16,884 bases of DNA from a virus. Below the pieces are notes generated by a model that searched no databases, was not told where the DNA came from, and saw only the letters and a list, made by a program, of their open reading frames with translations. Shown here piece by piece: positions 2,585 through 16,847 of this stretch. Each line of letters begins with the position of its first letter. The stretch's first letter is position 1. The stretch lies in the UHGV virus genome UHGV-0068632. One strand, 5' to 3'. Both the position numbers and the translations under genes were made by a program.

Positions 2585-4924
2585 ATGGCTACCAGTGTAG
2601 GTACAATTTATTACGAAGTTGATGCAAAAACTGGTCAACTTCTCGTTGCACAACGACAGGCAGACCAGGCCTTTGACCGTATAGAGCGCGGCGCAAAACA
2701 GGCTGACCGCCAGGTAAACACCCTGAAAACATCCATCAAGGCACTGACCAGGGTTATCCATTTGCTAATTGCTGCCGAGGCTGTGCGCCAATTTATGGAT
2801 ATGGCGGAGCAAGCCAAAATGCTTCGCGTAAAAATCAAATTGCTTACAGGTGAAGCGGAGGCAACGGAACGGGTTTTCAACAGACTGAAAGAAATATCAA
2901 AAGAAACAGGCCAAAGCCTCAAGGATACTGGTGCCCTGTGGCAAGGTCTTGCTATATCGCTAAAAAACACATCCGCCACAGAAGGCCAGGTGCTCAACCT
3001 GGTCAGCACGCTGCAAAAACTTGGTAACTTGGGCGGCGTGTCTGCGGAACAACTATCAAACTCCATGCTTCAGTTCCGCCAGGCTATTGATGCTGGCGTG
3101 TTGCAGGCGGAAGAGTTCAACTCAATACGTGATAACACCCCAACAATCATACAGGAAATGGCCCGACAGATGGGGTTATCTATGGGGCAGTTCCGCGCCG
3201 AAATGCTGGACGGCAAGATCACGGCTGAAAGGATGCTCAACGCGATCCAGGCGGCTACGCAGGAAACAAACGAGAAGTTTGCACAGTTACCGCGCACGTC
3301 CGGTATGGCTTTTAATGAGCTTAAAGTCGAGGTGATGGGACTTGTCGAACAACTTGATGATCTTTTCGGCATATCAGATGGCGTTGTGTCAGCTATCGAC
3401 TTAATAACTGGTGGCGTTGAGGGATTAGGTAAAGGCGCAAAATTCGCCGCAACCTGTTTCAATACACTAAAAACGGCTGGCAGTGAGTTTATCGACATGT
3501 TTGATGATGTTGCTGTTAAAGCTGGTGAGGTGGCGGAAGAGATTATCAGGATGGTAACGCCAATCAAAGCGCTAATGGATGGCTACAAATGGATGAAGGA
3601 GATCATTGATAAACGCAAGAATGAGCTAAACAGCAACAACGAAAAGAAATTCGGCCCTACAGTCGGTAAGGTCATGACGTTTGCAAATGACATCAAAAAT
3701 GCGACCGCCGCTTATGATGAGTTTATGCAGAAACAGGGTGAGGCTGATGACGGCAAGATCACCGGATTCGATCAGCCAGTTGGCAAGCCGAAAAAAGGGA
3801 AAAAAGACAAGAAATCTGAAGCTGATCGGCTTGGTGATGAAGGCATAAAAGTATCCGACCAGTACAACAAAGACGCCGCAGCTATGCGCAAAGCGTTAGA
3901 GAACGGCAAGGCCATTGATGCTGCATTCGCCCAGGGTAAAATCACTCTCCTTGAGTACCGCGCCGCGCAAAAAGGGATAGGTAAGGAACTGAAGGAAGAA
4001 TTAGCGCAAATTCCGGTAGATGAATTGCGTGATAAATGGGCGCAAATAGTAAGCCCGATGGATCAGCTTAAAGGTGAGGTTGACCCTATCCAGCAGGTGC
4101 AGAATGAATGGGCCGTCCGTAAGCAAATGCTTATCGACCTGGGCGTTACTGAAGCGCAACAGAAACAGGAACTGTTAGCCTATGAGCAACAGATCCGTGA
4201 TCTGAAGTGGGAACAGTGGCAGGCACAAAGCGATACAAACGGCCTTATCGGTGATTGCGTTAATGGCCTAAAAGGTGGTATGAGCAATGCACTTGTTGGC
4301 CTGTTAAATGGTACTCAATCATTGAGTGATGTTTTTGCTAACTTAGGCAGCAATATCCTCGGGAATATCGGTAACAGGCTTTCAGACATAGCTGCAAACT
4401 GGATAGCAGATCAGATCATGATGGAAACGCAAAGCAAAGCGACTCAGGCAAGTACCACGGCGGGCGCGGTAGCGGCGCAAGGCCAGATTGCTGCGGCGGC
4501 GGCCCCGGCGGCGGCGGCAACAGCGGCGTCAACTGGCGGCGCATGGGCGGCGGCTGGTTCTGCGGCACTCACTGCGATCATGTCGCTGGCTACGTCAATT
4601 TTCGGCGGCGGTCGCTTTAATGGTGGTAGCGTTATTGGTGGCAATATGTACCGCGTAGGGGAACACAACAGGCCGGAGCTATTCCAGACATCTAACGGAA
4701 ATCAATATATGATCCCAGGCGAGAATGGCAGGGTTATTCCTGGGCGTGATATTGGCGGTGGCGGCGGCATTAGTATGCCTGTCAATATCAACATTCAGAC
4801 CACAAACGGATTTAGCGACGAAGACAGTCGCAGACTTGAGCAAACAATGGAACGTGTAGCAATGAAGATGATAACAAGGGAATCACAAAGACCTGGAGGA
4901 ATATTGCAACCGCGCCGCAAATAA
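2585..4924 (+). CDS. Tail tape measure protein, 779 aa
   Basis: Large ORF in the expected position, with RBS gagg 8 nt upstream. Has the mostly helical N-terminal region and the Ala/Gly-rich hydrophobic segment (QASTTAGAVAAQGQIAAAAAPAAAATAAS...) typical of tape measure proteins. Followed by gpM/L/K/I/J homologues. Confidence 0.9.
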   Translation: MATSVGTIYYEVDAKTGQLLVAQRQADQAFDRIERGAKQADRQVNTLKTSIKALTRVIHLLIAAEAVRQFMDMAEQAKMLRVKIKLLTGEAEATERVFNRLKEISKETGQSLKDTGALWQGLAISLKNTSATEGQVLNLVSTLQKLGNLGGVSAEQLSNSMLQFRQAIDAGVLQAEEFNSIRDNTPTIIQEMARQMGLSMGQFRAEMLDGKITAERMLNAIQAATQETNEKFAQLPRTSGMAFNELKVEVMGLVEQLDDLFGISDGVVSAIDLITGGVEGLGKGAKFAATCFNTLKTAGSEFIDMFDDVAVKAGEVAEEIIRMVTPIKALMDGYKWMKEIIDKRKNELNSNNEKKFGPTVGKVMTFANDIKNATAAYDEFMQKQGEADDGKITGFDQPVGKPKKGKKDKKSEADRLGDEGIKVSDQYNKDAAAMRKALENGKAIDAAFAQGKITLLEYRAAQKGIGKELKEELAQIPVDELRDKWAQIVSPMDQLKGEVDPIQQVQNEWAVRKQMLIDLGVTEAQQKQELLAYEQQIRDLKWEQWQAQSDTNGLIGDCVNGLKGGMSNALVGLLNGTQSLSDVFANLGSNILGNIGNRLSDIAANWIADQIMMETQSKATQASTTAGAVAAQGQIAAAAAPAAAATAASTGGAWAAAGSAALTAIMSLATSIFGGGRFNGGSVIGGNMYRVGEHNRPELFQTSNGNQYMIPGENGRVIPGRDIGGGGGISMPVNINIQTTNGFSDEDSRRLEQTMERVAMKMITRESQRPGGILQPRRK

Positions 4925-4927
4925 ACG

Positions 4928-4958
4928 AAACCCCGGTACAATGCCGGGGTTATCTTTT
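4928..4958. terminator. Bidirectional hairpin terminator
   Basis: CCCCGG-tacaatg-CCGGGG at 4931-4949 followed by TTATCTTTT. Lies between the tape measure stop (4924) and the stop of the minus-strand ORF at 4957. Confidence 0.6.
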
Positions 4959-5133
4959 AGTTATTCTCAAAACTTGTATATCCTCTTTCAATTTTCCCGC
5001 CTCTTACACTTCTTGCAAATACTGCATCATTATGTTTGAAAAATGGTTCAGTATATGTGTCTCCTTTACTATCCATCCATTTCACGATCCAGGCTATACG
5101 TTTTACATTGCTTTTATTTGCCTGGTTTTTCAT
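4957..5133 (-). CDS. Small hypothetical protein, 58 aa (MKNQANKSNVKRIAWIVKWMDSKGDTYTEPFFKHNDAVFARSVRGGKIERGYTSFENN)
   Basis: Found by hand; one codon under the track cutoff. Strong RBS ggagg about 9 nt upstream of the ATG at 5133. The overlapping + strand track ORFs 5032-5289 and 5043-5228 lack an RBS and look like low-complexity antisense artefacts. Confidence 0.5.
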   Translation of the reverse strand: MKNQANKSNVKRIAWIVKWMDSKGDTYTEPFFKHNDAVFARSVRGGKIERGYTSFENN

Positions 5134-5151
5134 TTTATTTTCCTCCGCAAA

Positions 5152-5244
5152 TTACAATCTTCCGTTTCTGGCTATATAGCTGCGAGAAAACATCACCAAC
5201 CAAATATTCCAGATCTCCCTCCAGGTGAATTTATCGTCCTCCAT
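5152..5244 (-). CDS. Possible micro-ORF, 30 aa (MEDDKFTWREIWNIWLVMFSRSYIARNGRL)
   Basis: RBS gaggtg upstream of the ATG at 5244 overlaps the TGA stop of the 84-aa gene, and its own stop sits just upstream of the RBS of the 58-aa gene. Very short, so low confidence. Confidence 0.25.
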   Translation of the reverse strand: MEDDKFTWREIWNIWLVMFSRSYIARNGRL

Positions 5245-5251
5245 ACCCACC

Positions 5252-5506
5252 TCACTTATGGCAACCGCGAACGCCAGACAATTCATTGAATTTATGGTGT
5301 TCAACAATCACCCACTCTTTCAGATCCTGGCTATAGACTCGCCAGTCTAAATTGGCGCGGAAGGCGTAGCCGTAACCGTCTTTCAATTTTTTGGGTGACG
5401 CATTCTTGTTTAAAAACGCGTTCAAAAGTTCCTTTGCTTTTTTGACTACATGTCCCGGCGCGTTTTTCTGTGCTTTCAGATTTTTGTCAATCGCTACCAG
5501 TTTCAT
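5252..5506 (-). CDS. Basic 84-aa protein, tentatively RelE/ParE-superfamily-like (candidate toxin or mRNA interferase)
   Basis: Complete ORF in the track. Net charge about +9. The segment KKLKDGYGYAFRANLDWRVYSQDLKEWVIVEHHK resembles, by eye, the beta-strand core and C-terminal His/Tyr region of RelE/YoeB/YafQ-type toxins. This is pattern recognition only, not an alignment. Confidence 0.55.
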   Translation of the reverse strand: MKLVAIDKNLKAQKNAPGHVVKKAKELLNAFLNKNASPKKLKDGYGYAFRANLDWRVYSQDLKEWVIVEHHKFNELSGVRGCHK

Positions 5507-5523
5507 AACTCACCCCATCATCC

Positions 5524-5678
5524 TTAGTTAAGTGCCTTCAGGAAGAAGTCCCGGTATTCATCTTCTTTTGCATTCATCATGAATTGACCGTATTTGAATG
5601 CGTCGTCGAAACCCTTAACGATTGCTATTTCCACTTGTTCGAATGCGTTGTTTAGCATTACCACTACATAGCGTTTCA
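5524..5678 (-). CDS. Small hypothetical protein, 51 aa (MKRYVVVMLNNAFEQVEIAIVKGFDDAFKYGQFMMNAKEDEYRDFFLKALN), possible partner of the 84-aa protein
   Basis: Strong RBS aggagg 6-7 nt upstream of the ATG at 5678. The track's longer 76-aa version starting at 5754 runs through the promoter motif and has no RBS, so the internal start is preferred. Lies 17 nt upstream of the 84-aa gene. Confidence 0.55.
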
Positions 5679-5744
5679 TTTTGGGCCTCCTTCGTTGGTA
5701 CTGCTTTTCTTCTTGCTTTCTATATACATCTTGATGCGTGATAT

Positions 5745-5830
5745 GTGAAGCCATTTTGTAAACTAGCTATAATCATTGTGATGAAGATCTCATTTTTTGC
5801 GTAGAATCGCGTAAAAGTATATACAAAATG
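5745..5830. promoter_or_regulatory. Divergent promoter/operator region carrying the shared motif pair
   Basis: gtgaagccattttgta at 5745-5760 is identical over 16 bp to 2528-2543. A perfect TATAAT lies at 5768-5773 and a GATC at 5786-5789. The motif recurs in reverse orientation as tatacaaaatg at 5820-5830. Confidence 0.4.
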
Positions 5831-5848
5831 TAAATTATAGGGGGATTT

Positions 5849-6202
5849 ATGCCTGAAGTGTTCCGATGGACACCACAAAGAAGCTACAGCGTAAACAGTG
5901 AGCCTAACGTGTCTGTCATTAAGCTGGGTGATGGGTATGAACAGCGCCAGACAAAAGGGATTAACCCTTTACTTGATAGCTACAGCCTGGTTTTTAAAGG
6001 CACAAGCGCCGGATGCGGTGACGCCGGAAACGTGGCGCTCCAAGTTGACGCATTTTTAAGGGCGCGTTGCGCGGTCGAGGCGTTTTACTGGACTCCATCA
6101 ACTGACGGGGTGCAAAGGCTTTTTGTATGCAGAAAGTGGAGCATGACGAAAGACGGCCCGGTATGCACGCTAAACGCAACTTTTGAGCAAGTTGTCAATT
6201 AA
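5849..6202 (+). CDS. Minor tail protein, lambda gpM-like, 117 aa
   Basis: Matches my recollection of lambda gpM along its length: FRW near the N-terminus, GDGYxQR, WTP, CxKWS, and the C-terminal FEQVVN. RBS ggggga 4 nt upstream. Confidence 0.9.
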   Translation: MPEVFRWTPQRSYSVNSEPNVSVIKLGDGYEQRQTKGINPLLDSYSLVFKGTSAGCGDAGNVALQVDAFLRARCAVEAFYWTPSTDGVQRLFVCRKWSMTKDGPVCTLNATFEQVVN

Positions 6203-6215
6203 TGGAGGTGTCAAT

Positions 6216-6401
6216 ATGTATGCTATTTGTGTAGTGGACCGCACGGGCGCTTTTACATTGTTTGACGACTATGAAATCAACGATCTTACTGTAAAGGCTG
6301 ATAATGGCGAGATCTGGTATCTTCATGATGTTGGTGACGGGTATGTCGGATGCAGATCGAGAGAGGGTAGGGAAGTTTTATTTTTACTTGATGGCGTATA
6401 A
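6216..6401 (+). CDS. Small hypothetical protein, 61 aa, between the gpM-like and gpL-like genes
   Basis: RBS ggaggtg about 6 nt upstream of the ATG at 6216. The track start at 6183 has no RBS. No counterpart in the lambda M-L junction, so probably accessory. Confidence 0.55.
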   Translation: MYAICVVDRTGAFTLFDDYEINDLTVKADNGEIWYLHDVGDGYVGCRSREGREVLFLLDGV

Positions 6402-6406
6402 ACACG

Positions 6407-6433
6407 ACCCCGCGCGAAGCGGGGTTATTATTA
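6407..6433. terminator. Bidirectional hairpin terminator
   Basis: ACCCCGC-gcgaa-GCGGGGT at 6407-6425 followed by TATTATTATT. The same 19-mer occurs as an exact reverse complement at 14606-14624. Confidence 0.6.
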
Positions 6434-6547
6434 TTCCATTTCCATTAACGCTATATTTTCTGCTATCGTTTTCCAGTCCAGATCTACAGCATGAACACCA
6501 AATACTATCAATCCCATTGCGATTAGTGCTAAAACTTCGATTTTCAT
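6431..6547 (-). CDS. Small putative membrane protein, 38 aa (MKIEVLALIAMGLIVFGVHAVDLDWKTIAENIALMEME)
   Basis: Found by hand. RBS gtgagg 6 nt upstream of the ATG at 6547. The hydrophobic N-terminal segment predicts a single transmembrane helix. The stop overlaps the terminator tail. Confidence 0.45.
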   Translation of the reverse strand: MKIEVLALIAMGLIVFGVHAVDLDWKTIAENIALMEME

Positions 6548-6638
6548 AATCAACCTCACTTAATTAAGAAAGGCATAAACGATGGCAATCGCGCCAGCCA
6601 CTACCAAAACATTTCGATCACTTCGTCTACTTTATTGA

Positions 6639-6842
6639 TTAAGGTAACTCCACTTCGTTAAATGTAACAAGCACCCCTTGATTTTCTTTATTTATAATTA
6701 TGAAGGCATTAATTGAAGGCAGACATCTTTCCACGCGGTAAACGTCACCAATATCTAAACTGTAATATTCTGTTAATTCTCTATTGTTCCCTTTAGCAAA
6801 ACCCGTAAACCTAACCATTTTTTGACCGTCGTACTTTAACAT
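6639..6842 (-). CDS. Hypothetical protein, 67 aa, cassette 3
   Basis: ORF in the track. RBS agga 6 nt upstream of the ATG at 6842. Lies 9 nt downstream of the preceding gene's stop. No family recognised. Confidence 0.65.
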   Translation of the reverse strand: MLKYDGQKMVRFTGFAKGNNRELTEYYSLDIGDVYRVERCLPSINAFIIINKENQGVLVTFNEVELP

Positions 6843-6850
6843 ATACAGTC

Positions 6851-7099
6851 CTATAGGTTATCACGCAGATAATTAACGCCTTTGTCAGTGACGAATGAGT
6901 GATTAACCTGGTTTTCATCCGTCATGATGATGAATGACTTTTCCTGTAGGTATTTCGCTTTTGGGTACAGCGTTAAACAGACCTGGTACAGTATCCCGCG
7001 CTCAATCAGCAAATCAATAAATTCGTGCTCATGATAACCGACGAGGCGGGCGGCTTGTTTCAACGTGTACACATAATCGCCGTGATTGCGCCGCCCCAT
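6851..7099 (-). CDS. Hypothetical protein, 82 aa, possible helix-turn-helix DNA-binding protein
   Basis: ORF in the track with RBS aaggcgg upstream. The segment YTLKQAARLVGYHEHEFIDLLIERGIL has the spacing of an HTH motif of the excisionase/AlpA-like type. Judged by eye only. Confidence 0.6.
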   Translation of the reverse strand: MGRRNHGDYVYTLKQAARLVGYHEHEFIDLLIERGILYQVCLTLYPKAKYLQEKSFIIMTDENQVNHSFVTDKGVNYLRDNL

Positions 7100-7108
7100 G
7101 TTGCCGCC

Positions 7109-7456
7109 TTATTTATCGAATGCGCCCAGGTTATCTATGCAGAAGTCTTTCGCAGCTTTTTCGTATTCGCGTTTTGCTTGCGGATCGTCTGCCGGGAAAC
7201 CTTTTGCGTGTATTTCACCAGGGCAAGACTGATCCATAGAATCAGCAAATTCAACATTGACGTTAAAGTTAATATCTTTCGGATTCATGTTTTCCACCTC
7301 ATCAATTATCTGCACCGGATTAGCGGCATATTTCACTGGATGGCCTAAACTACATTCAAGAATCCTTCCTTCTTCCAAAGCTGCCTCTTCGCTATCAAAT
7401 AATCCGAAACACTCCTTGCAACCACTTAACCACACATCAAGACTATATTTTTGCAT
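7109..7456 (-). CDS. Acidic hypothetical protein, 115 aa, cassette 3
   Basis: ORF in the track. RBS gagagg 8 nt upstream of the ATG at 7456. About 23 Asp/Glu against about 11 Lys/Arg (net charge near -12). Contains a CxxC pair (CKEC). No family recognised. Confidence 0.7.
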   Translation of the reverse strand: MQKYSLDVWLSGCKECFGLFDSEEAALEEGRILECSLGHPVKYAANPVQIIDEVENMNPKDINFNVNVEFADSMDQSCPGEIHAKGFPADDPQAKREYEKAAKDFCIDNLGAFDK

Positions 7457-7468
7457 TTCGTTAACCTC

Positions 7469-7624
7469 TCATTTGACAGGTTCGATTCTGTACCCCAAAA
7501 CGCGTTCGTCTTCAGCGAGTAATAGCGCGTCAGTCAGTGCCTCGCCTTCGTCTTTATACAGAGCTACAGTCATTTCCCTGCCACCTGACAGGAATACCTT
7601 CAACCTCCACACCTTATCAGCCAT
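7469..7624 (-). CDS. Small hypothetical protein, 51 aa (MADKVWRLKVFLSGGREMTVALYKDEGEALTDALLLAEDERVLGYRIEPVK), first gene of cassette 3
   Basis: Strong RBS ggagg 6 nt upstream of the ATG at 7624. The track's 76-aa version starting at 7699 has no RBS and extends into the promoter region. Stop lies 12 nt upstream of the next gene. Confidence 0.55.
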   Translation of the reverse strand: MADKVWRLKVFLSGGREMTVALYKDEGEALTDALLLAEDERVLGYRIEPVK

Positions 7625-7628
7625 CTCA

Positions 7629-7739
7629 CACCTCCGCGCCATTTTGTTAACTGTGCTTCCGTTTGAGTAAAATATACATATTGTATAAACCGCGATCAAT
7701 CCATTTTGGTATGATTTAGCGTGACGCAGATCACAAAAT
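7629..7739. promoter_or_regulatory. Divergent promoter/operator region carrying the shared motif family
   Basis: Motif variants at 7629-7641 (ccattttgttaac), about 7669-7681 (catattgtataaa) and 7701-7715 (ccattttggtatgat, containing the extended -10-like TGGTATGAT). agatcacaaaat at 7728-7739 is identical to 15004-15015. Confidence 0.4.
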
Positions 7740-7753
7740 CAGAAGGTGAGAAA

Positions 7754-8458
7754 ATGCGCAATATACCTACAGAGATGATTATTGATTCCGTGGACGCTGG
7801 TGTGGGCGCGGTGATTGACTTGTTCGAACTGGACTTGTCGCCCCTGGGTGGCGAGGTTATCCGCTTCCATTCCGGCGCGAATGGCTATTACGGCCCGGTT
7901 ATCTGGAAGGGATTAACTTACAACAGCTACCCGATCGAGGCTACTGGCTTCGAAATGAAAAACGAGGGCGTTTATTCGCGGCCTCAAATGGTTGTAGCCA
8001 ATATCGGCGGGCTAATCACAGGGATGAATAACGACTTCAACGACCTGCGAGGAATGAAGGTTACGCGCCGCCAGGTGGAAGTAAAATACCTGGACGCCGT
8101 TAACTTCCCAAACGGCAATCCAGACGCAGATCCATCTATTGAGGCTGTATCTTTTTACGTCGTGGAGGCCATGAGCGAGGAAACAGCGGATCAGGTGCAA
8201 TATGAGCTGTCAACGCCAATTGATGCTGATAAGGCCGTTATCCCTGGGCGCACCATCCTTGCTGACGTTTGCCAGTGGCAATACAGAGGCGACGGGTGTA
8301 TGTACGCTGGCGGACCAGTAGCAAACGATAAAGACGAGCCGACAAGCGATCCTAAAGCCGACAGATGCAGCCACCGTCTAAGCGGTTGTCGTTTGCGTTT
8401 CCCGCGTCCAAATCCGTTACCGATTTCCTGTTTCCCTGGTTCCAGTAAGGTAGGTTAA
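7754..8458 (+). CDS. Minor tail protein, lambda gpL-like, about 234 aa
   Basis: Extended match to my recollection of lambda gpL: TGFE, SRPQ, GMxxDxxxL, VTRRQV, FLDAVNFPNGN, AVxPGRxxLAxxCxWxYRGDxC, CSHRLSGCRLRF. The ATG at 7754 follows gaaggtgag; the track's start at 7721 is a GTG inside the conserved leader motif. Confidence 0.9.
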   Translation: MRNIPTEMIIDSVDAGVGAVIDLFELDLSPLGGEVIRFHSGANGYYGPVIWKGLTYNSYPIEATGFEMKNEGVYSRPQMVVANIGGLITGMNNDFNDLRGMKVTRRQVEVKYLDAVNFPNGNPDADPSIEAVSFYVVEAMSEETADQVQYELSTPIDADKAVIPGRTILADVCQWQYRGDGCMYAGGPVANDKDEPTSDPKADRCSHRLSGCRLRFPRPNPLPISCFPGSSKVG

Positions 8459-9679: not shown

Positions 9680-12600
9680 ATGAGTAGCGGCGGCGGCAAA
9701 GCAAAAACACCAACTTTAATTAACGATAATCTATATCACAAACAGTTTTATCGTGTACTCGACATTATTTCAGAAGGTCCGATTTATGGTCCTGTTAATA
9801 CCAATGCGCCATTAAACAGCGTAATGCTTAATGACACCCCTGTAACTGACGCGAACGGCAATACCAGCATCCCCGGTATTAGCGTAGCGTGGCGCAATGG
9901 TACGATAGATCAATCACCGATTAACGGTTTTAACGCCATTGAATCAACCGTTATTGTTAACGCACAGGTTAAACACGATACACCAATAATCAGGACCGTT
10001 TCCGATCCTAACGTAAACCGCGTTCGCCTGAATATCGGCGTCGATTCACTTGTACAATCTGACGAGCAAAGCAATCAACATAACACATCGGTTATGATGA
10101 TGATTGACGTGAAGCCTTCGTCTTCTTCTACGTGGACGCTTGTTAAAGACGTTACTATAGGCCCAGGTAAGATCAGCGGAGAATATCTTGAAGCGCATAT
10201 TATCAATGCACCAGATGAAAAACCGTTTGATATTCGCGTTCGCCGTGTAACCGCTGATAGCACAAGCGATCTGTTGCAGAATGATACGCGATGGAGTAGC
10301 TACAGCGAAATAATCGACGATAATTTGTCTTATCCTCACACCGCTGTAGCTGGCGCGGTAATTGACCATGATCAGTACGCTGACACGCCTACCCGCACCT
10401 ATCACCTTCGCGGGCTGATTGTTGATATTCCTGATAACTACGACCCGGAAAAGCGCACTTATTCCGGTTTGTGGCTTGGCGGCTTCAAACAGGCGTACAC
10501 CAATAACCCAGCATGGATCTTCCGCTATCTGGTTAAAAACGAGCGTTTCGGCCTTGCTCGTCACGCTGGCTATATTGACGTTGACGACGGCGCATTATAT
10601 ACGCTTTCTCAATACTGCGACCAGTTGGTTGATGATGGCTACGGCGGCCTTGAGCCTCGCATGACGCTTAACGCTTACATCACAGAGCAAATGAGCGCCC
10701 GCGACTTACTGGACAATATCGCCGGGATGTTCAGGGGTATCGCGTTATGGGACGGGCAACGCCTTACCGTGATGATTGATGCACCACAAGACCCGATCGC
10801 CACCATTACAAATGCAAATGTCGTTGATGGCGCGTTTACTCGTTCAAGTATCGCCCGCGCAGAATGCTACAACGCCGTGATCGTATCATGGACTGACCCG
10901 GAAAACGGATGGGAGCAATCAAAAGAGTATGTAGCAGACGATGAACTGATCGCCCGTGATGGTTACAACGAAACCACGTTAGAGGCGTTCGGGTGCACAT
11001 CACGCGGGCAAGCATACCGCGCGGGCAAGTGGCTGATAGAAACAGCAAAACGCGAGCCGTCAAAATTCACGTTTAAAATGGCGCGTGACGCGATTCACTT
11101 TACGCCAGGGGATATTATCGAGATACTCGACAATAACCGCGCAGGCGCTCGTTTAGGCGGCCGCATCGTTGCGAACAACGGCAAAGTAATAACGGTAGAT
11201 AAGGTTGACGCCAATTATATCGCCGCTGGGGATACAATCAGCCTTCTTGATAGCGATGGCAAGTTTAAAAAGCATCAGATCACCGGGGTGAGCGGAAACA
11301 AAATCACACTGGCGGCGGCCCCGTCATGGATTCGAAACGGCACTGTTTTTGCTGTATCCACTGAATCAGCAAAACCCGTTTTGTGCCGGATCACCAGTGT
11401 AGCCGAAACAGAAAATAACAGCGTGTACACCATCGAGGCCGCACAGCACGACCCGAACAAGCAAGCAGTGGTCGATGAAGGCGCAATATTTGAAGTCAAC
11501 AATGACACGCTTAACCATTTCCGCGTGCCGAACATTGAAAATCTGAAGGTGGTAAACATTGGATCGGAAACAATTCAATGTCGCGCCACATGGGAAACGC
11601 AGACAACAACGCATCGTATGACATTTGAGATCCGCATATATAATGCAGATGGTGCGGTGGTTAAAAGCTATGAAACAACGAAATACAGTTATGATTTTTA
11701 TGGCATTGACGCTGGCGTGTATTCTTTAGGGGTTCGCGGAAGAAATGACACTGGCATGAAGGGCGCGGAAAGTATTGTGGATCTGGTTATTGGTGCGCCA
11801 GCAGCGCCAATAGGTGTTAACTGGGTACCAGGTGTATTTCAGGCTACCGTATACCCGATAAGTAAGACAACGCTAACCACTGATACAGCGTATGAATTCT
11901 ACTATGCAGGGGAAAACCAGATCACAGATCCGGCAAAAATAACCACGGCGGCACAGTTTACCGGGCGCGGGTATCAGTGGACGTTCGGCGGAATGAACAC
12001 GGGCCATACTTATTACGTTTATGTGCGTACACGTAATGCTTTTGGCGTGTCAGACTTCGTTGAAGCATCAGGTAAGCCGACAGAAAATTTTGATGAAATT
12101 AGCGATTACGTCACCAAAGACGTGATGAATTCCGAACAATTTAAAGAAATGGTGGGCGACATTAAGGATCTTGGCGATCGCACTGACATTATCGAAAGTG
12201 CAACTCAAGACCTTAAAACAGCTACTGATACCCTAAGCGGAATAACTGAAGGCTTAAGAACTGATACTGATAATTTAATTACAGAAACAGAATCAATTAA
12301 AGCTGATACTGATTCCCTTAAAAAAGACACTGAAGACCTTTACAAGAAAGTCGAAGAAAACGCCGATGAAATAGGTAAACATGAGGTAAGAATTGACTCA
12401 TTAGAGGTATCAAGCGAAAACGTAGATAATGAACTGGCACAGACAAAAGCAAGCCTACAAAACGCATCGCTTGCTCTTATTAATAATTCGCTTGCTCAAA
12501 CTAATACCAGAAGAACGCTGACAGCTCAGATCAAAAACGTGGATTATGAAACTAAGGCGCAAATAGATCGCATTGATAACGTGATTGTCAGTGAAAAAGA

Positions 12601-14599
12601 AGCAAGAGCGGAGGCAATGGAGACAATTACCGCCGAAATCGACACGATGGATAAAAACATCAAAGGTGAGATTGCGCGCGTAGATACTGCCATTGCCAAT
12701 GAGAGCCAGGCAAGGGCTGATGCCATCAGTGAAGTTAGCGCAAACATTGACGCACTTGATAGTAAAACAGATGCCAGTGTTAATCGTCTTGATCAAGCTA
12801 TCGCAGATGAGGCCAGCGCACGCGCACAGGCTATCAGCAATGTCAATGCGAGCATGACAAATCTTGATAACAAGGTTACAAGCAACGTTTCTAGACTTGA
12901 TCAGGCAATAGCTGACGAATCAAGCGCAAGAGCAGAAGCCGATGATCAGTTAATAGCAAAAAGCGAAAAACTTGATGGTGATCTCGCTATGGCAAGGGCA
13001 AGCCTACAAAACGCTTCGCTTGCTCTCATCAATAATACATTGTCTCAGACAAAGACAAGGCGCACTCTCACAGCGGAGTTCAAACGCGGACAAAGTGAAA
13101 CTAAAGCACAAATTGACCGTATTGATAATGTCATTACTGACGAAAAACAGGCAACAGCGGAAGCGTTTGAAACTATCACAGCAGAAATGAACACGATGGA
13201 CTCAAACATTAAAGGAGAAATATCACGATTAGATAAAGTGATCGCGACTGAAACGCAAGCAAGATCTGAAGCTATAAGTAGTGTTAATGCAAGCATAAAG
13301 ACGCTAGAAAGCGACACTGAAGCCAGCGTTAACCGTCTTGATCAGGCAGTTGCTGACGAGGCCAGCGCCCGCGCACAAGCTATCAGCGGAGTAAATGCAA
13401 GCATCAGCACGCTTGATAGCAAGGTTACAAGCAATGTGACCCGTATCGACAAAGCTATTGCAGATGAGACGCAGGCCCGCACAGACGCAATAAGCAACCT
13501 TAACTCATCGCTTACCAGTACGATTAATTCTAAAGTATCTGAAGTATCAACAGCACTTTCTACGCATGAAGCATCAAGCGCGGAAAAATTCAGCCAGATC
13601 TCAGCGTCTTTCGAAGCTGTAAACTCAAGCATCACGGAATGGTCGCAGACCATGACAACGGCGGACGAGGCATTATCAACCAAAATTGATCAGTTAACAG
13701 TAACCGTTAATGGGAACACAACAGCGATCGAGACGACATCGAAAGCGTTAACCGACTTCAAAGGTAATGTTGATGCGTCATGGTCAATCAAGATTGCTAC
13801 TGATAACAACGGCATGAAATACGCTACAGGTATGTCGCTTGGCCTGACTGGTAGCGGGACTAACGTTCAATCGCAGTGTATTTTCCTCGTTGACCGCTTC
13901 GTGTTAATGACCGCAGCAAACGGCACATATACAACGCCTTTCTATGTGTCTAATGGTGCAATGTATGTGAAAGAAGCGTTTATTAAAAACGCATCAATAG
14001 GTACAGCTAAAATTGCAGATGCAGCCATTACTATGGCTAAAATTGTTAATGAAATAAAATCATCAAACTATGTTGCTGGTTCTAAAGGTTGGAGGATAAC
14101 ACAAAGCGGATCATCAGAATTTAACGATGTTGTGGTAAGGGGCGAAATCCATGCTAATAGCGGTAAATTCAAAGGAACTGTAGAAGCTACATCCTTTGTT
14201 GGTGATGTCGCATCTACTAACGTTATACCGCAATCATCATTCCCTGGGACAAGTACAAGCGGATCTCGATCTGTTACGAAGACGTATAAAGATTCATCAT
14301 CAAGCTCGCTTTCGAAAACAGTTTTCGTAATGATTCCTTACCATCTTACTTATTATACTTATTCAGGATCATCAACAATAAAAGTAACAATTGATATTAA
14401 TGGCAATAGCAAAACATATAACGTAGTAAGGGCGGCATCATCGCCTCAATTCGGATTTACGGTATCACATTGCGTAACTGGGATTACTGCTCAAACAGTT
14501 ACGATAAAAATAACAGAGGAATACACCAACACCGGAACATCAGCAGAAAGAAGGCCAGGTCTTGCACTTGTTACAAGAAGCTCAGGATCATGGTCATAA
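9680..14599 (+). CDS. Tail tip / host specificity protein, lambda gpJ-like, 1639 aa
   Basis: Collinear similarity to lambda J over the N-terminal roughly 800 aa (for example SEGPIYGPV, YHLRGLIVDIPDNYDPEKRTYSG, LSQYCDQLVDDGYGGLEPRMTLNAY, FGCTSRGQAYRAGKWLIETA). Followed by FN3-like segments, a roughly 480-aa repetitive coiled-coil region and a distinct C-terminal domain. Confidence 0.95.
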   Translation: MSSGGGKAKTPTLINDNLYHKQFYRVLDIISEGPIYGPVNTNAPLNSVMLNDTPVTDANGNTSIPGISVAWRNGTIDQSPINGFNAIESTVIVNAQVKHDTPIIRTVSDPNVNRVRLNIGVDSLVQSDEQSNQHNTSVMMMIDVKPSSSSTWTLVKDVTIGPGKISGEYLEAHIINAPDEKPFDIRVRRVTADSTSDLLQNDTRWSSYSEIIDDNLSYPHTAVAGAVIDHDQYADTPTRTYHLRGLIVDIPDNYDPEKRTYSGLWLGGFKQAYTNNPAWIFRYLVKNERFGLARHAGYIDVDDGALYTLSQYCDQLVDDGYGGLEPRMTLNAYITEQMSARDLLDNIAGMFRGIALWDGQRLTVMIDAPQDPIATITNANVVDGAFTRSSIARAECYNAVIVSWTDPENGWEQSKEYVADDELIARDGYNETTLEAFGCTSRGQAYRAGKWLIETAKREPSKFTFKMARDAIHFTPGDIIEILDNNRAGARLGGRIVANNGKVITVDKVDANYIAAGDTISLLDSDGKFKKHQITGVSGNKITLAAAPSWIRNGTVFAVSTESAKPVLCRITSVAETENNSVYTIEAAQHDPNKQAVVDEGAIFEVNNDTLNHFRVPNIENLKVVNIGSETIQCRATWETQTTTHRMTFEIRIYNADGAVVKSYETTKYSYDFYGIDAGVYSLGVRGRNDTGMKGAESIVDLVIGAPAAPIGVNWVPGVFQATVYPISKTTLTTDTAYEFYYAGENQITDPAKITTAAQFTGRGYQWTFGGMNTGHTYYVYVRTRNAFGVSDFVEASGKPTENFDEISDYVTKDVMNSEQFKEMVGDIKDLGDRTDIIESATQDLKTATDTLSGITEGLRTDTDNLITETESIKADTDSLKKDTEDLYKKVEENADEIGKHEVRIDSLEVSSENVDNELAQTKASLQNASLALINNSLAQTNTRRTLTAQIKNVDYETKAQIDRIDNVIVSEKEARAEAMETITAEIDTMDKNIKGEIARVDTAIANESQARADAISEVSANIDALDSKTDASVNRLDQAIADEASARAQAISNVNASMTNLDNKVTSNVSRLDQAIADESSARAEADDQLIAKSEKLDGDLAMARASLQNASLALINNTLSQTKTRRTLTAEFKRGQSETKAQIDRIDNVITDEKQATAEAFETITAEMNTMDSNIKGEISRLDKVIATETQARSEAISSVNASIKTLESDTEASVNRLDQAVADEASARAQAISGVNASISTLDSKVTSNVTRIDKAIADETQARTDAISNLNSSLTSTINSKVSEVSTALSTHEASSAEKFSQISASFEAVNSSITEWSQTMTTADEALSTKIDQLTVTVNGNTTAIETTSKALTDFKGNVDASWSIKIATDNNGMKYATGMSLGLTGSGTNVQSQCIFLVDRFVLMTAANGTYTTPFYVSNGAMYVKEAFIKNASIGTAKIADAAITMAKIVNEIKSSNYVAGSKGWRITQSGSSEFNDVVVRGEIHANSGKFKGTVEATSFVGDVASTNVIPQSSFPGTSTSGSRSVTKTYKDSSSSSLSKTVFVMIPYHLTYYTYSGSSTIKVTIDINGNSKTYNVVRAASSPQFGFTVSHCVTGITAQTVTIKITEEYTNTGTSAERRPGLALVTRSSGSWS
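12449..13546 (+). repeat. In-frame tandem duplication (2 x 549 bp, 183 aa each) inside the gpJ-like gene
   Basis: Unit 1 begins gcaagcctacaaaacgcatcgcttgctctt at 12449 and unit 2 begins gcaagcctacaaaacgcttcgcttgctctc at 12998. The proteins ASLQNASLALINNSLAQTNTRRTLTAQ... and ASLQNASLALINNTLSQTKTRRTLTAE... are collinear. Each unit holds three shorter repeats of about 36 aa of the RLDQAIADEASARAQAIS type. Confidence 0.8.
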
Positions 14600-14606
14600 A
14601 AAATAA

Positions 14607-14632
14607 CCCCGCTTCGCGCGGGGTTTTCTTTT
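14607..14632. terminator. Bidirectional intrinsic terminator between the J-like gene and the lipoprotein gene
   Basis: CCCCGC-ttcgc-GCGGGG at 14607-14623 followed by TTTTCTTTT. Lies 8 nt after the J-like stop codon, and the minus-strand lipoprotein stop overlaps the T-tract. Confidence 0.65.
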
Positions 14633-14879
14633 AGTAGTTAGCTACACAATTCGACGGGCTACCTATGCGGCGCATGTTGTGATCGAGTTCATGACACCAT
14701 TGACCAGTATATGGCAGTTTTTCAGTGTCATATACAAGATGACCATTAGCATCATAGACGATTTCTTGTGGAATCACTCCGCTATTTGGCAGGTTATGCA
14801 ATGCAGCTTCTTTGTCAACAGCGCAACCAGTAAGAGCAACAGCCGCAGCGAATAAAACCACTTTGAACATGTTTTTCAT
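14631..14879 (-). CDS. Small outer-membrane lipoprotein, 82 aa, in the Cor/Llp position (candidate receptor-blocking superinfection exclusion protein)
   Basis: N-terminus MKNMFKVVLFAAAVALTGC has a signal peptide and lipobox L-T-G-C with Ala at +2. RBS gagga 6-7 nt upstream. Encoded convergently just downstream of the receptor-binding J-like gene, where T1/phi80-type Cor and T5 Llp genes are found. Assigned by position and type, not by sequence homology. Confidence 0.7.
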   Translation of the reverse strand: MKNMFKVVLFAAAVALTGCAVDKEAALHNLPNSGVIPQEIVYDANGHLVYDTEKLPYTGQWCHELDHNMRRIGSPSNCVANY

Positions 14880-15056: not shown

Positions 15057-16847
15057 ATGATTTATACAACGGGAACAATTGCCATTAACGGCAATACTGT
15101 TACAGGCACGGGAACAAACTTTTCCGCGCCGCTTTCTCTCATCCGTGTAGGTTGCACGCTCATTGCCATTAGCAATCCTATCCAGATCTTTACCATCACA
15201 GAAATTAAGAGCGGTACTGAACTGTCAGTGACGCCAGCGGCTAACCCTGCAATTGCTGCCGGGGCAAAATTCAGCATTCTGCTTTCTGACTCTATCTCAG
15301 TTGATGGGCTTGCCCAGGATGTAGCGGAAACACTTCGTTTTTATCAGGAAAAAGAAGACGAAATATCCAGCGCAATAGATGGCAGCAATATTGGCTTAGG
15401 TCCAGAGCCGCGCGATTGCGTCGATATATCAGGCGATCCGTCTTCTTACGTTGGCTTTTTGCGCATAAAGGAAACGACTAAGGGTTTTCCTTCTGTAGCG
15501 GCTGGTGAATCATTTTTGAGTGGATTTATCTGTCAACGAGACACGACGCCTTCATATACAGGCGTCTTTGTCGGTTGGGCTACGCGATCACTTTATACGT
15601 ATACATGGGTCGCAACATCAGGTCCGAACTGGACACGACACGCAAGAAAAGATGAGGTGGATAGGCTTGTTCAAAGAACAGGAGAAACTCGCGTACGCGC
15701 TCAAAACGCAAATAAATTCCTTACCGTCTATGATTCAGGATCGTGGGGTTATTATGACTCAGAGGCTAGTAAATGGCTACCGCTTCCAGTTCTTGCTGGA
15801 GGCACTGGTGCGGGAAACGCAGAAGAAGCAAGAAATAATTTAAATCTTGGTGAAAGCAACGCGGTTAAATTCAAAAACCTTACGTTAATAGGGGCGCTAG
15901 ATGCAAATTTAGGCATGCTCGTAAAAACTGGAAGAGACTGGAATACTCAGCACACTGACAATATCCAAAAATTTATACCAATGGCAGGAAGCACAAACGG
16001 ACCCGCCGGAGCAATGGTACTCGGTGGCTTCCATGTGCAATACAGCACAAATTACGCTGTGCAATTCGGGGGTCGAAATTCCGGTTTTTGGGGTAGAACA
16101 ATTGAAAACGGAACAGTTCAGGAATGGCGTCAACTAGCTACGCTTAACACATCCGGTCAAAAATGGACTGCCGGTCAGCATTTTGTGACGACAAAAATTA
16201 ACTCTTATGATTTCACAAGACGTTTAACTATCGATGTGATAGAAAACGCAAAAACAAACGCACGGTTACGCTTATGGGGATCAGAAACAAGGCAGTCCGT
16301 TTTAGAATATGGACTCTCGAACGCTGAAACCGATGAGTATAATACATATGGCTTTTATTGCCAGCTTAACCCAGACGGAGTAATTAGTTTTCAGGTTAAC
16401 GGCGTAGTAAACTGCACAGCAGTTAATCAGACTTCAGATCGCGATCTGAAGGACAACATTCAGGTTATAGGTGATGCAACTGAAGCAATCCGTAAAATGA
16501 ACGGGTACACCTACACCCTCAAGGAAAACGGCCTGCCTTACGCTGGCGTTATCGCTCAAGAGGTAATGGAGGCGCTGCCGGAGGCTGTGGGATCGTTTAC
16601 TCATTACGGTAAAGCATTACAAGGCCCGACCACTGACGGCAACGAGCTACGCGAGGAAACGCGTTACCTCAATGTTGACTACGCTGCGGTGACTGGTTTA
16701 CTTGTTCAGGTGGCACGCGAAACAGATAACCGCGTCACCGAACTGGAGGAAGAAAACGCCAGCTTACGAGCTAACATTGCCGTCATGGATGAGCGGATCA
16801 CAAAACTTGAAGCGCTTGTCAGGCAGTTAACCGGAAGCGAAGAATAA
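15057..16847 (+). CDS. Tail fibre protein with C-terminal intramolecular chaperone (peptidase S74-like) domain, 596 aa
   Basis: RBS ggag 9 nt upstream. The C-terminal roughly 135 aa (TSDRDLKDNIQVIGDATEAIRKMNGYTYTLKENG...AGVIAQEVMEALPEAV...) matches the conserved self-cleaving chaperone module of endosialidase and T5 L-shaped fibre proteins, and ends in a coiled-coil (LEEENASLRANIAVMDERITKLEALV). Confidence 0.85.
   Translation: MIYTTGTIAINGNTVTGTGTNFSAPLSLIRVGCTLIAISNPIQIFTITEIKSGTELSVTPAANPAIAAGAKFSILLSDSISVDGLAQDVAETLRFYQEKEDEISSAIDGSNIGLGPEPRDCVDISGDPSSYVGFLRIKETTKGFPSVAAGESFLSGFICQRDTTPSYTGVFVGWATRSLYTYTWVATSGPNWTRHARKDEVDRLVQRTGETRVRAQNANKFLTVYDSGSWGYYDSEASKWLPLPVLAGGTGAGNAEEARNNLNLGESNAVKFKNLTLIGALDANLGMLVKTGRDWNTQHTDNIQKFIPMAGSTNGPAGAMVLGGFHVQYSTNYAVQFGGRNSGFWGRTIENGTVQEWRQLATLNTSGQKWTAGQHFVTTKINSYDFTRRLTIDVIENAKTNARLRLWGSETRQSVLEYGLSNAETDEYNTYGFYCQLNPDGVISFQVNGVVNCTAVNQTSDRDLKDNIQVIGDATEAIRKMNGYTYTLKENGLPYAGVIAQEVMEALPEAVGSFTHYGKALQGPTTDGNELREETRYLNVDYAAVTGLLVQVARETDNRVTELEEENASLRANIAVMDERITKLEALVRQLTGSEE

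Follow-up and report, generated by a model that had tools for sequence, protein, structure and literature searches.

Toxins of the RelE/ParE superfamily are recognised by a fold in which one or more N-terminal helices lie against an antiparallel sheet of three to four strands. The residues required for catalysis are E46, R65, H83 and Y84 in YoeB and K52, K54, R61, R81 and Y87 in RelE. Antitoxins that lack a DNA-binding domain exist, an example being the 63-amino-acid (aa) PaaA2 of the PaaA2-ParE2 pair. RegB of phage T4 is a ribonuclease (RNase) acting on mRNA that has structural similarities with YoeB and RelE and no known antitoxin (PMC3014915). Here we describe g84, an 84-aa protein encoded by the virus genome UHGV-0068632, of which a stretch of 16,884 nucleotides (nt), referred to below as the window, was analysed. 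Its gene (5506..5252, minus strand) is the second of four successive minus-strand genes at positions 4957-5679, which encode proteins of 51, 84, 30 and 58 aa (g51, g84, g30 and g58), and it follows the g51 gene (5679..5524, minus strand) after a spacer of 17 nt. We find that g84 is very probably a member of the RelE/ParE fold superfamily, belonging to the Pfam family PF24732, and that g51 is dispensable to it.

The match of g84 to PF24732 (ParE_like, 'ParE-like toxin domain') has an expectation value (E) of 1.2e-7 and a score of 32.1 bits, compared to a gathering score of 24.4. It spans residues 19-74 of the protein and positions 2-66 of the 67 positions of the profile. In PHROG, g84 corresponds to phrog_1525, a family of no assigned function, and some of its close homologues are named 'ParE family toxin-like protein' in UniRef and RefSeq. 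An exhaustive profile search with g84 over 1.84 billion representatives returned only 12 proteins at E ≤ 1e-3, so that, judged by sequence, the g84 family is small and divergent. A word-index profile search gave 30 proteins at E ≤ 0.01. A precomputed Pfam domain was available for 26 of these and was PF24732 in every case; the other four are shorter (40-61 aa) and have no Pfam domain on record. We assembled an alignment, A3, of 27 g84 relatives including distant ones, and all 27 match PF24732 (best E=6.1e-19). The family is already catalogued in Pfam and RefSeq, and sequences identical to g84 are public.

The structure of g84 was modelled with AlphaFold. When the input was limited to the 12 close homologues, the predicted local distance difference test score (pLDDT) was 47 and the model was unusable. 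Adding the distant relatives (alignment A3) brought the pLDDT to 86.0, with a predicted template-modelling score of 0.73. In the resulting model, one long N-terminal helix is predicted to pack on a three-stranded sheet, accompanied by an extra N-terminal β-hairpin and a short C-terminal helix, an arrangement that places g84 within the superfamily fold. Among solved structures, the best Foldseek match of the model was Staphylococcus aureus YoeB (E=0.04, probability 0.96, template-modelling score (TM) 0.46). The best matches in BFVD were 'ParE-like toxin domain' proteins of phages fHe-Yen9-04 (TM 0.76) and RaK2 (TM 0.70). The model was also compared with individual toxin structures, and the figure obtained was 5.3 for HigB1 and for YoeB, 5.0 for YafQ, RelE and an HP0894-type toxin, 4.7 for PrpT and 4.5 for ParE2; in this ranking the ParE structures stand below the RNases.

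Like the mRNA interferases YoeB, RelE, YafQ and HigB, g84 is small and basic, with 17 Lys and Arg residues for 8 Asp and Glu residues (net charge +9) and an isoelectric point (pI) of 9.86. The first-pass annotation, made from the window's sequence, had described the protein as strongly basic (net about +9) and RelE/ParE-like, and both descriptions agree with our results. The structure prediction and Foldseek search that it had recommended led to a RelE/ParE fold with YoeB as the top solved match. By contrast, the Pfam families that it had proposed to search (ParE_toxin, YoeB and YafQ) were not those recovered: none of the 27 relatives matched the Pfam models for ParE_toxin (PF05016), RelE, YoeB, YafQ or HigB at E ≤ 10, and PF24732 was found instead. 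A phmmer search of g84 against PDB sequences gave chance matches only, to kinases and hyaluronate lyase. With hhalign, A3 aligned to single, approximate YafQ, YoeB and RelE sequences at uninformative probabilities below 3%, and only YoeB was in the expected register. Thus g84 differs from these interferases in having no significant match to their Pfam families or PDB sequences, and its model differs in having one N-terminal helix rather than two, in addition to the extra hairpin.

Across the 27 relatives, Arg56 alone is invariant, and Lys40 comes close to invariance. In the alignments with YoeB, Arg56 coincides with the Arg of the HRLVY strand, which we take to be the catalytic R65 of Escherichia coli YoeB and R61 of RelE. 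In most rows of A3, as read by eye, an H..Y[ND] motif comes after the last strand, with His70 and Phe/Tyr73 being conserved. g84 would resemble YoeB and RelE in its conserved Arg, placed in the strand that bears R65 or R61, and in having a His and an aromatic side chain beyond the last strand as putative counterparts. From these alignments we infer that the conserved Arg and His..Tyr pattern is closer to that of an RNase than to that of ParE. The subfamily of the mEp021 group of phages is distinguished by the extra N-terminal hairpin (residues 1-16) and by an invariant C-terminal GV.G.HK tail, which is missing from most distant PF24732 members.

g51, a mildly acidic protein (pI 5.14), belongs to phrog_29810 (E=9.4e-40), also a family of no assigned function. 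It has no match in Pfam, NCBIfam, PADLOC or the PDB, and hence none to an antitoxin or DNA-binding family, in keeping with the first-pass remark that it shows no obvious DNA-binding motif. Identity is 76% or more for every one of its 57 homologues, and the named sources among them are E. coli or E. coli phages. A precise deletion of g51, with the same junction, is present in two assemblies, namely L007 (E. coli GCA_964047275.1) and the complete genome of UMNK88. The deletion removes g51 together with its ribosome-binding site (RBS); in both assemblies the hexamers of the candidate promoter, the RBS of g84 and an intact g84 remain. The L007 g84 protein is identical to an allele from g51-positive loci. 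Between UMNK88 and L007, g84 has undergone 27 synonymous and 11 non-synonymous changes, which corresponds to a ratio of non-synonymous to synonymous rates (dN/dS) of 0.057. The presence of an intact, constrained g84 in both assemblies means that the gene is maintained without g51. Moreover, loci in which g84 identity falls to 58-64% still have g51 at 90-100% identity. The same g51 protein, unchanged, accompanies three g84 alleles, and a single g84 allele accompanies two g51 variants; the two proteins thus do not co-vary.

Other hallmarks of a toxin-antitoxin or defence module were sought around the cluster. No inverted repeat of at least 8 nt that could serve as an upstream operator palindrome occurs in 5660-5860, none of the four proteins matched a PADLOC-DB v2 defence model at E ≤ 10, and NCBIfam gave no match. 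Rfam detected no RNA gene, RNA antitoxins included, over 4500-8000 (a snoRNA match at E=0.15 is attributed to chance), and no tRNA gene was found. The genes downstream of g84 vary between loci: g30 and g58; a 49-aa gene followed by g30 and g58; a g58-like gene and a 38-aa gene; genes of 70 and 95 aa; a zinc-ribbon gene in mEp021; an HNH gene in mEp515; and nothing in GN04592. This variability, and the empty site in GN04592, leave g84 with no constant alternative partner. A downstream gene (g30, g58 or another) acting as a HigA-style antitoxin was likewise considered and rejected, the content being different beside the same g84 allele and nil in GN04592. In mEp515 (PP180003.1) and in E. coli E21845/O/A (NZ_CP076272.1), the annotation places an HNH endonuclease gene next to the g84 homologue or under it, as another form of the island's cargo.

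Among distant PF24732 members, the gene neighbourhoods are unrelated. An Enterobacter integrative element has its PF24732 gene flanked by a ParB-like gene and an 89-aa gene, adjacent to AlpA, and Sortsne gp07 is encoded upstream of a lysis cassette; no antitoxin is annotated in either setting. In all, 70 phage records carry a PF24732 member, nearly all of them from jumbo phages of about 310-390 kb. Relatives are conserved in jumbo phages of the RaK2, K64-1, phAPEC6, GAP32 and fHe-Yen9-04 type, near one genome end, some of these phages having two copies. In Klebsiella phage Muenster (L027, MT708547.1), the member at 2501-2749 falls within the 20-kb terminal repeat, and its neighbour encodes a putative protein kinase. 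Its depositors labelled it 'putative YafQ-like ribonuclease toxin; HHpred 4MMG_B 97.7%', and no adjoining antitoxin is annotated.

The four genes form a genuine accessory ('moron') operon set against the late tail operon of a temperate coliphage or prophage of the mEp021 (mEpimmI) group, and we propose that g84 acts as a stand-alone phage effector rather than as the toxic half of a type II pair with g51. The protein would be directed at RNA or the ribosome, in the manner of RelE, YoeB and YafQ, through Arg56, His70 and Tyr/Phe73; this RNA target, these catalytic residues and the timing of expression are putative assignments. For cells to tolerate it with no antidote of its own, its activity or its expression would need to be sufficiently low or specific, a possibility also raised for T4 RegB. 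The g51-g84 pair stays constant at the promoter-proximal end of a recombination hot spot, and the cargo downstream of it is variable. Taken as a whole, we give this model an even chance of being correct. RegB is the functional analogy that we favour, since it is also phage-encoded and has a RelE/YoeB-like structure. The two proteins nevertheless differ in several respects: RegB was not among the structural matches of the g84 model, it uses two histidines (48 and 68) and has an extra first helix, and it is an early gene of a lytic phage, whereas g84 lies antisense in the tail operon of a temperate phage.

Several observations weigh against a stand-alone effector of the RNase type. In a profile search of PDB sequences, YoeB came first with profile A2 but at a non-significant E of about 0.2, and profile A3 retrieved nothing relevant. 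The position of the YoeB general base, Glu46, is occupied by Lys39 in g84, and one allele (P0011) has Arg in place of His70. The Pfam label 'ParE-like' would itself imply gyrase as the target. g51 and g84 co-occur in nearly all carriers and are 17 nt apart, as a toxin-antitoxin pair would be, and the prophages that lack g51 could be transcriptionally silent. Finally, a literature search turned up no paper on the family and no experimental characterisation of a member.

The co-occurrence of the two genes belongs to a set of features that g51 and g84 would share with a bona fide type II toxin-antitoxin or abortive-infection module, in which g51 would be a minimal antitoxin without a DNA-binding domain and the pair would stabilise the prophage or abort infection by other phages. 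The genes are small, adjacent, co-oriented and tightly spaced, a slightly acidic protein preceding a basic one with a toxin fold; they have a candidate promoter and a terminator in common and lie in an accessory island of a prophage. In E. coli Ecol_244 (L024, NZ_CP019020.1, locus 1383-1660), moreover, g84 is a frameshifted and truncated pseudogene beside an intact g51, which is the order of decay expected of such a module. The lesions are a 1-nt deletion in an A-run and a deletion that fuses the 3′ part of g84 to g30, and the 54-aa remnant is still named 'ParE family toxin-like protein' in RefSeq. However, the two g51 deletions beside an intact and constrained g84, in one case an allele identical to that of g51-positive loci, are difficult to reconcile with an antidote, and the conservation of g51, far above that of g84 and without co-variation, reverses the usual pattern. 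g51 matches no antitoxin family, its homologues are limited to this phage group while the g84 family is broad and has other partners elsewhere, and the operator palindrome and PADLOC matches are lacking. In contrast to YoeB, RelE, YafQ and HigB, g84 has no recognisable indispensable antitoxin, and in contrast to PaaA2-ParE2 and ParD-ParE the locus shows a dispensable small protein that does not co-vary with its neighbour, no PF05016 match and nothing related to gyrase. We therefore regard a toxin-antitoxin module as unlikely, and on these comparisons g51 is probably not the antitoxin of g84. The deletions, the allele combinations and the missing palindrome thus argue against the pairing of the 51-aa and 84-aa genes put forward in the first-pass annotation, and its suggestion of an exclusion or abortive-infection type of defence module found no counterpart in PADLOC.

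The name ParE_like and the RefSeq and UniRef labels would also suit a ParE-type gyrase poison, with or without an antidote, that arrests the replication of the host or of a superinfecting phage. The C-terminal residues of ParE matter for its toxicity, and the invariant GV.G.HK tail of the subfamily could be read in this light, as could the Lys at the position of the YoeB catalytic Glu. Yet this tail is missing from most distant members, no member matches PF05016 at E ≤ 10, Arg56 and the His..Tyr motif fit the RNase-type pattern, and the HHpred remark in the Muenster record points to YafQ; a gyrase poison accordingly appears highly improbable. Somewhat less remote, though still improbable, is a catalytically inert RelE-fold protein that binds the ribosome or RNA, regulates the island, or acts as a decoy for host antitoxins or defence factors. 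Such a binder would explain how g84 is tolerated without any constant neighbour, why the YoeB Glu is missing and why His70 can be replaced by Arg. It would also be consistent with the wide retention of the family by lytic phages among the small genes of the early region, and with the strong purifying selection, which indicates a functional protein. An invariant Arg and a mostly conserved His..Tyr at the active-site region of the RelE family are hard to explain by binding alone, however, and there is no positive evidence for any binding partner.

The four open reading frames (ORFs) are genuine genes, beyond chance. Compared with diverged relatives, all four carry the mark of purifying selection (dN/dS 0.02-0.13), synonymous changes being numerous and non-synonymous ones few. 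Taken gene by gene, the dN/dS is 0-0.07 for g51, 0.01-0.06 for g84 (within allele groups), about 0.04 for g30 and 0.10-0.22 for g58; the g30 value is based on proportions of synonymous and non-synonymous differences of 0.63 and 0.05 with respect to mEp010. The same four coding sequences are annotated in phage MagusPhagus, and mEp010 too has these small coding sequences annotated, all as 'hypothetical'. The cluster is flanked on the plus strand by a tape-measure gene (2585-4924, 779 aa) and by a gpM-like Phage_min_tail gene (5849-6202, PF05939, E=1.5e-29), so that the layout described by the first-pass annotation holds. Its coordinates for g51 (5678-5524) are right at the end and one base off at the start, which lies at 5679, and the strong AGGAGG that it reported before this gene is present 6 nt upstream. 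The spacers between the genes are 17, 7 and 18 nt in cluster order. g30 (5244..5152, minus strand) has an RBS, GAGGTGG, that overlaps the g84 stop codon, as claimed; for g58 (5133..4957, minus strand), to which the same claim extended, the RBS is GGAGGA. Both are accessory genes. g30 is 87-100% identical at the amino acid level in L001-L004 and L007 and is missing from L005, L009 and GN04592. g58, a basic protein (pI 9.9), is missing from L009-L012 and GN04592, and has only sub-threshold matches, to Phage_ORF5 in Pfam (E=0.004) and to phrog_1670 (E=0.007).

A standard consensus scan found no sigma-70 promoter upstream of g51. The best match of a lenient hexamer scan (9 of 12 positions) is a candidate sigma-70 promoter at 5749..5721 on the minus strand, TTCACA and TATATA separated by 17 nt, located about 42 nt upstream of the g51 start codon. 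Its hexamers are kept in three diverged relatives (L003, L007 and L009), in which the spacer has diverged, and on this sequence evidence the promoter is plausible. A G+C-rich intrinsic-terminator hairpin was found at 4929-4951 by a terminator scan of each strand. In its minus-strand version, a stem of 8 pairs (6 of them G-C) is followed by TCGTTTATTT, a T-run. The hairpin is common to the end of the tape-measure gene on the plus strand and the end of the minus-strand cluster, and an equivalent terminator is annotated in mEp010 and mEp021. Of the dedicated promoter and terminator that had been ascribed to the cluster, the latter is thus present as a bidirectional element; the former is absent from the standard scan and has a candidate, with conserved hexamers, in the lenient one. 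Transcription of the cluster would probably run from this weak conserved promoter to the bidirectional terminator. Late tail transcription, from the tape-measure gene to gpM, must read through both the hairpin and the antisense cluster. This requirement fits the Nus-dependent antitermination that has been reported for the mEpimmI phages (PMC11893012).

Over this region, identity is 97.7% with Escherichia phage MagusPhagus and about 80% with phages mEp010, mEp013, mEp044, mEp554, mEp515 and mEp021. The mEp phages belong to the 'mEpimmI' group of Nus-dependent, non-lambdoid temperate coliphages, and the paper describing their genomes does not discuss the four-gene cluster (PMC11893012). Both g51 and g84 are 100% identical to their counterparts in a prophage of E. 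coli 09-00049. Among 5,426 complete E. coli genomes, g51 is present in 34 and g84 in 33, the two being together in nearly all of the approximately 35 carriers. The close homologues of g84 all occupy the same site of related prophages. A mosaic breakpoint near position 5460, at about codon 16 of g84, is seen in L003, L005 and L009. Conservation extends as one block over the promoter region, g51 and roughly the first 16 codons of g84, and the remainder of g84 consists of alleles that are saturated at synonymous sites; the megablast match of mEp021 to the window is confined to 5460-5892. Between the same loci, the synonymous divergence (dS) of g51 is 0.15-0.2 and the synonymous sites of g84 are saturated, which indicates a recombination breakpoint near g84 codon 16.

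Other minus-strand genes interrupt the tail region. A second antisense cluster (6639-7624) lies between the gpM-like and 61-aa genes and gpL. It begins with a 51-aa gene (7624..7469), called 'transporter' in RefSeq for strain 09-00049, and continues with genes of 115 aa, 82 aa (KilAC/ANT antirepressor domain, PF03374, E=2.3e-6) and 67 aa. The 51-aa leaders of the two clusters were considered as possible paralogues, which was rejected as they gave no BLASTP alignment. Upstream of the tape-measure gene, a third antisense pair (1335-2324) encodes a 219-aa protein with a type VI secretion system VasI-like domain (PF11319, E=2.3e-14) and a 106-aa protein without a match. With groups at 1335-2324, 4957-5679 and 6639-7624, the tail operon contains at least three backward-facing accessory islands. 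A further accessory gene may be an 82-aa minus-strand ORF (14631-14879) without a Pfam match; on its two sides are a J-like central fibre gene (9680-14599) and a tail-fibre gene that includes a Peptidase_S74 chaperone domain (15057-16847).

The finding is a modest one in itself, since the g84 family is already in Pfam and RefSeq, and it calls for caution in annotation. A RelE/ParE-fold protein encoded behind a small upstream prophage gene resembles a textbook pair, and here the deletion variants and the absence of co-variation argue otherwise. More tentatively, PF24732 could be a widespread, antitoxin-less phage branch of the RelE/ParE superfamily and a second, much broader class of 'RegB-like' mRNA or ribosome effectors, a view that we consider possible but doubtful. 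Such a branch would be used by lytic jumbo phages, from the terminal repeat and presumably early, and by temperate coliphages, from an antisense island, and the ultra-conserved g51 would then be an independent small effector and not an antidote. A stand-alone phage RNase or ribosome effector, if the family proves to be one, would provide a compact new tool or target for studies of translation shut-off, and would broaden the RegB precedent to numerous temperate and jumbo phages of Enterobacterales.

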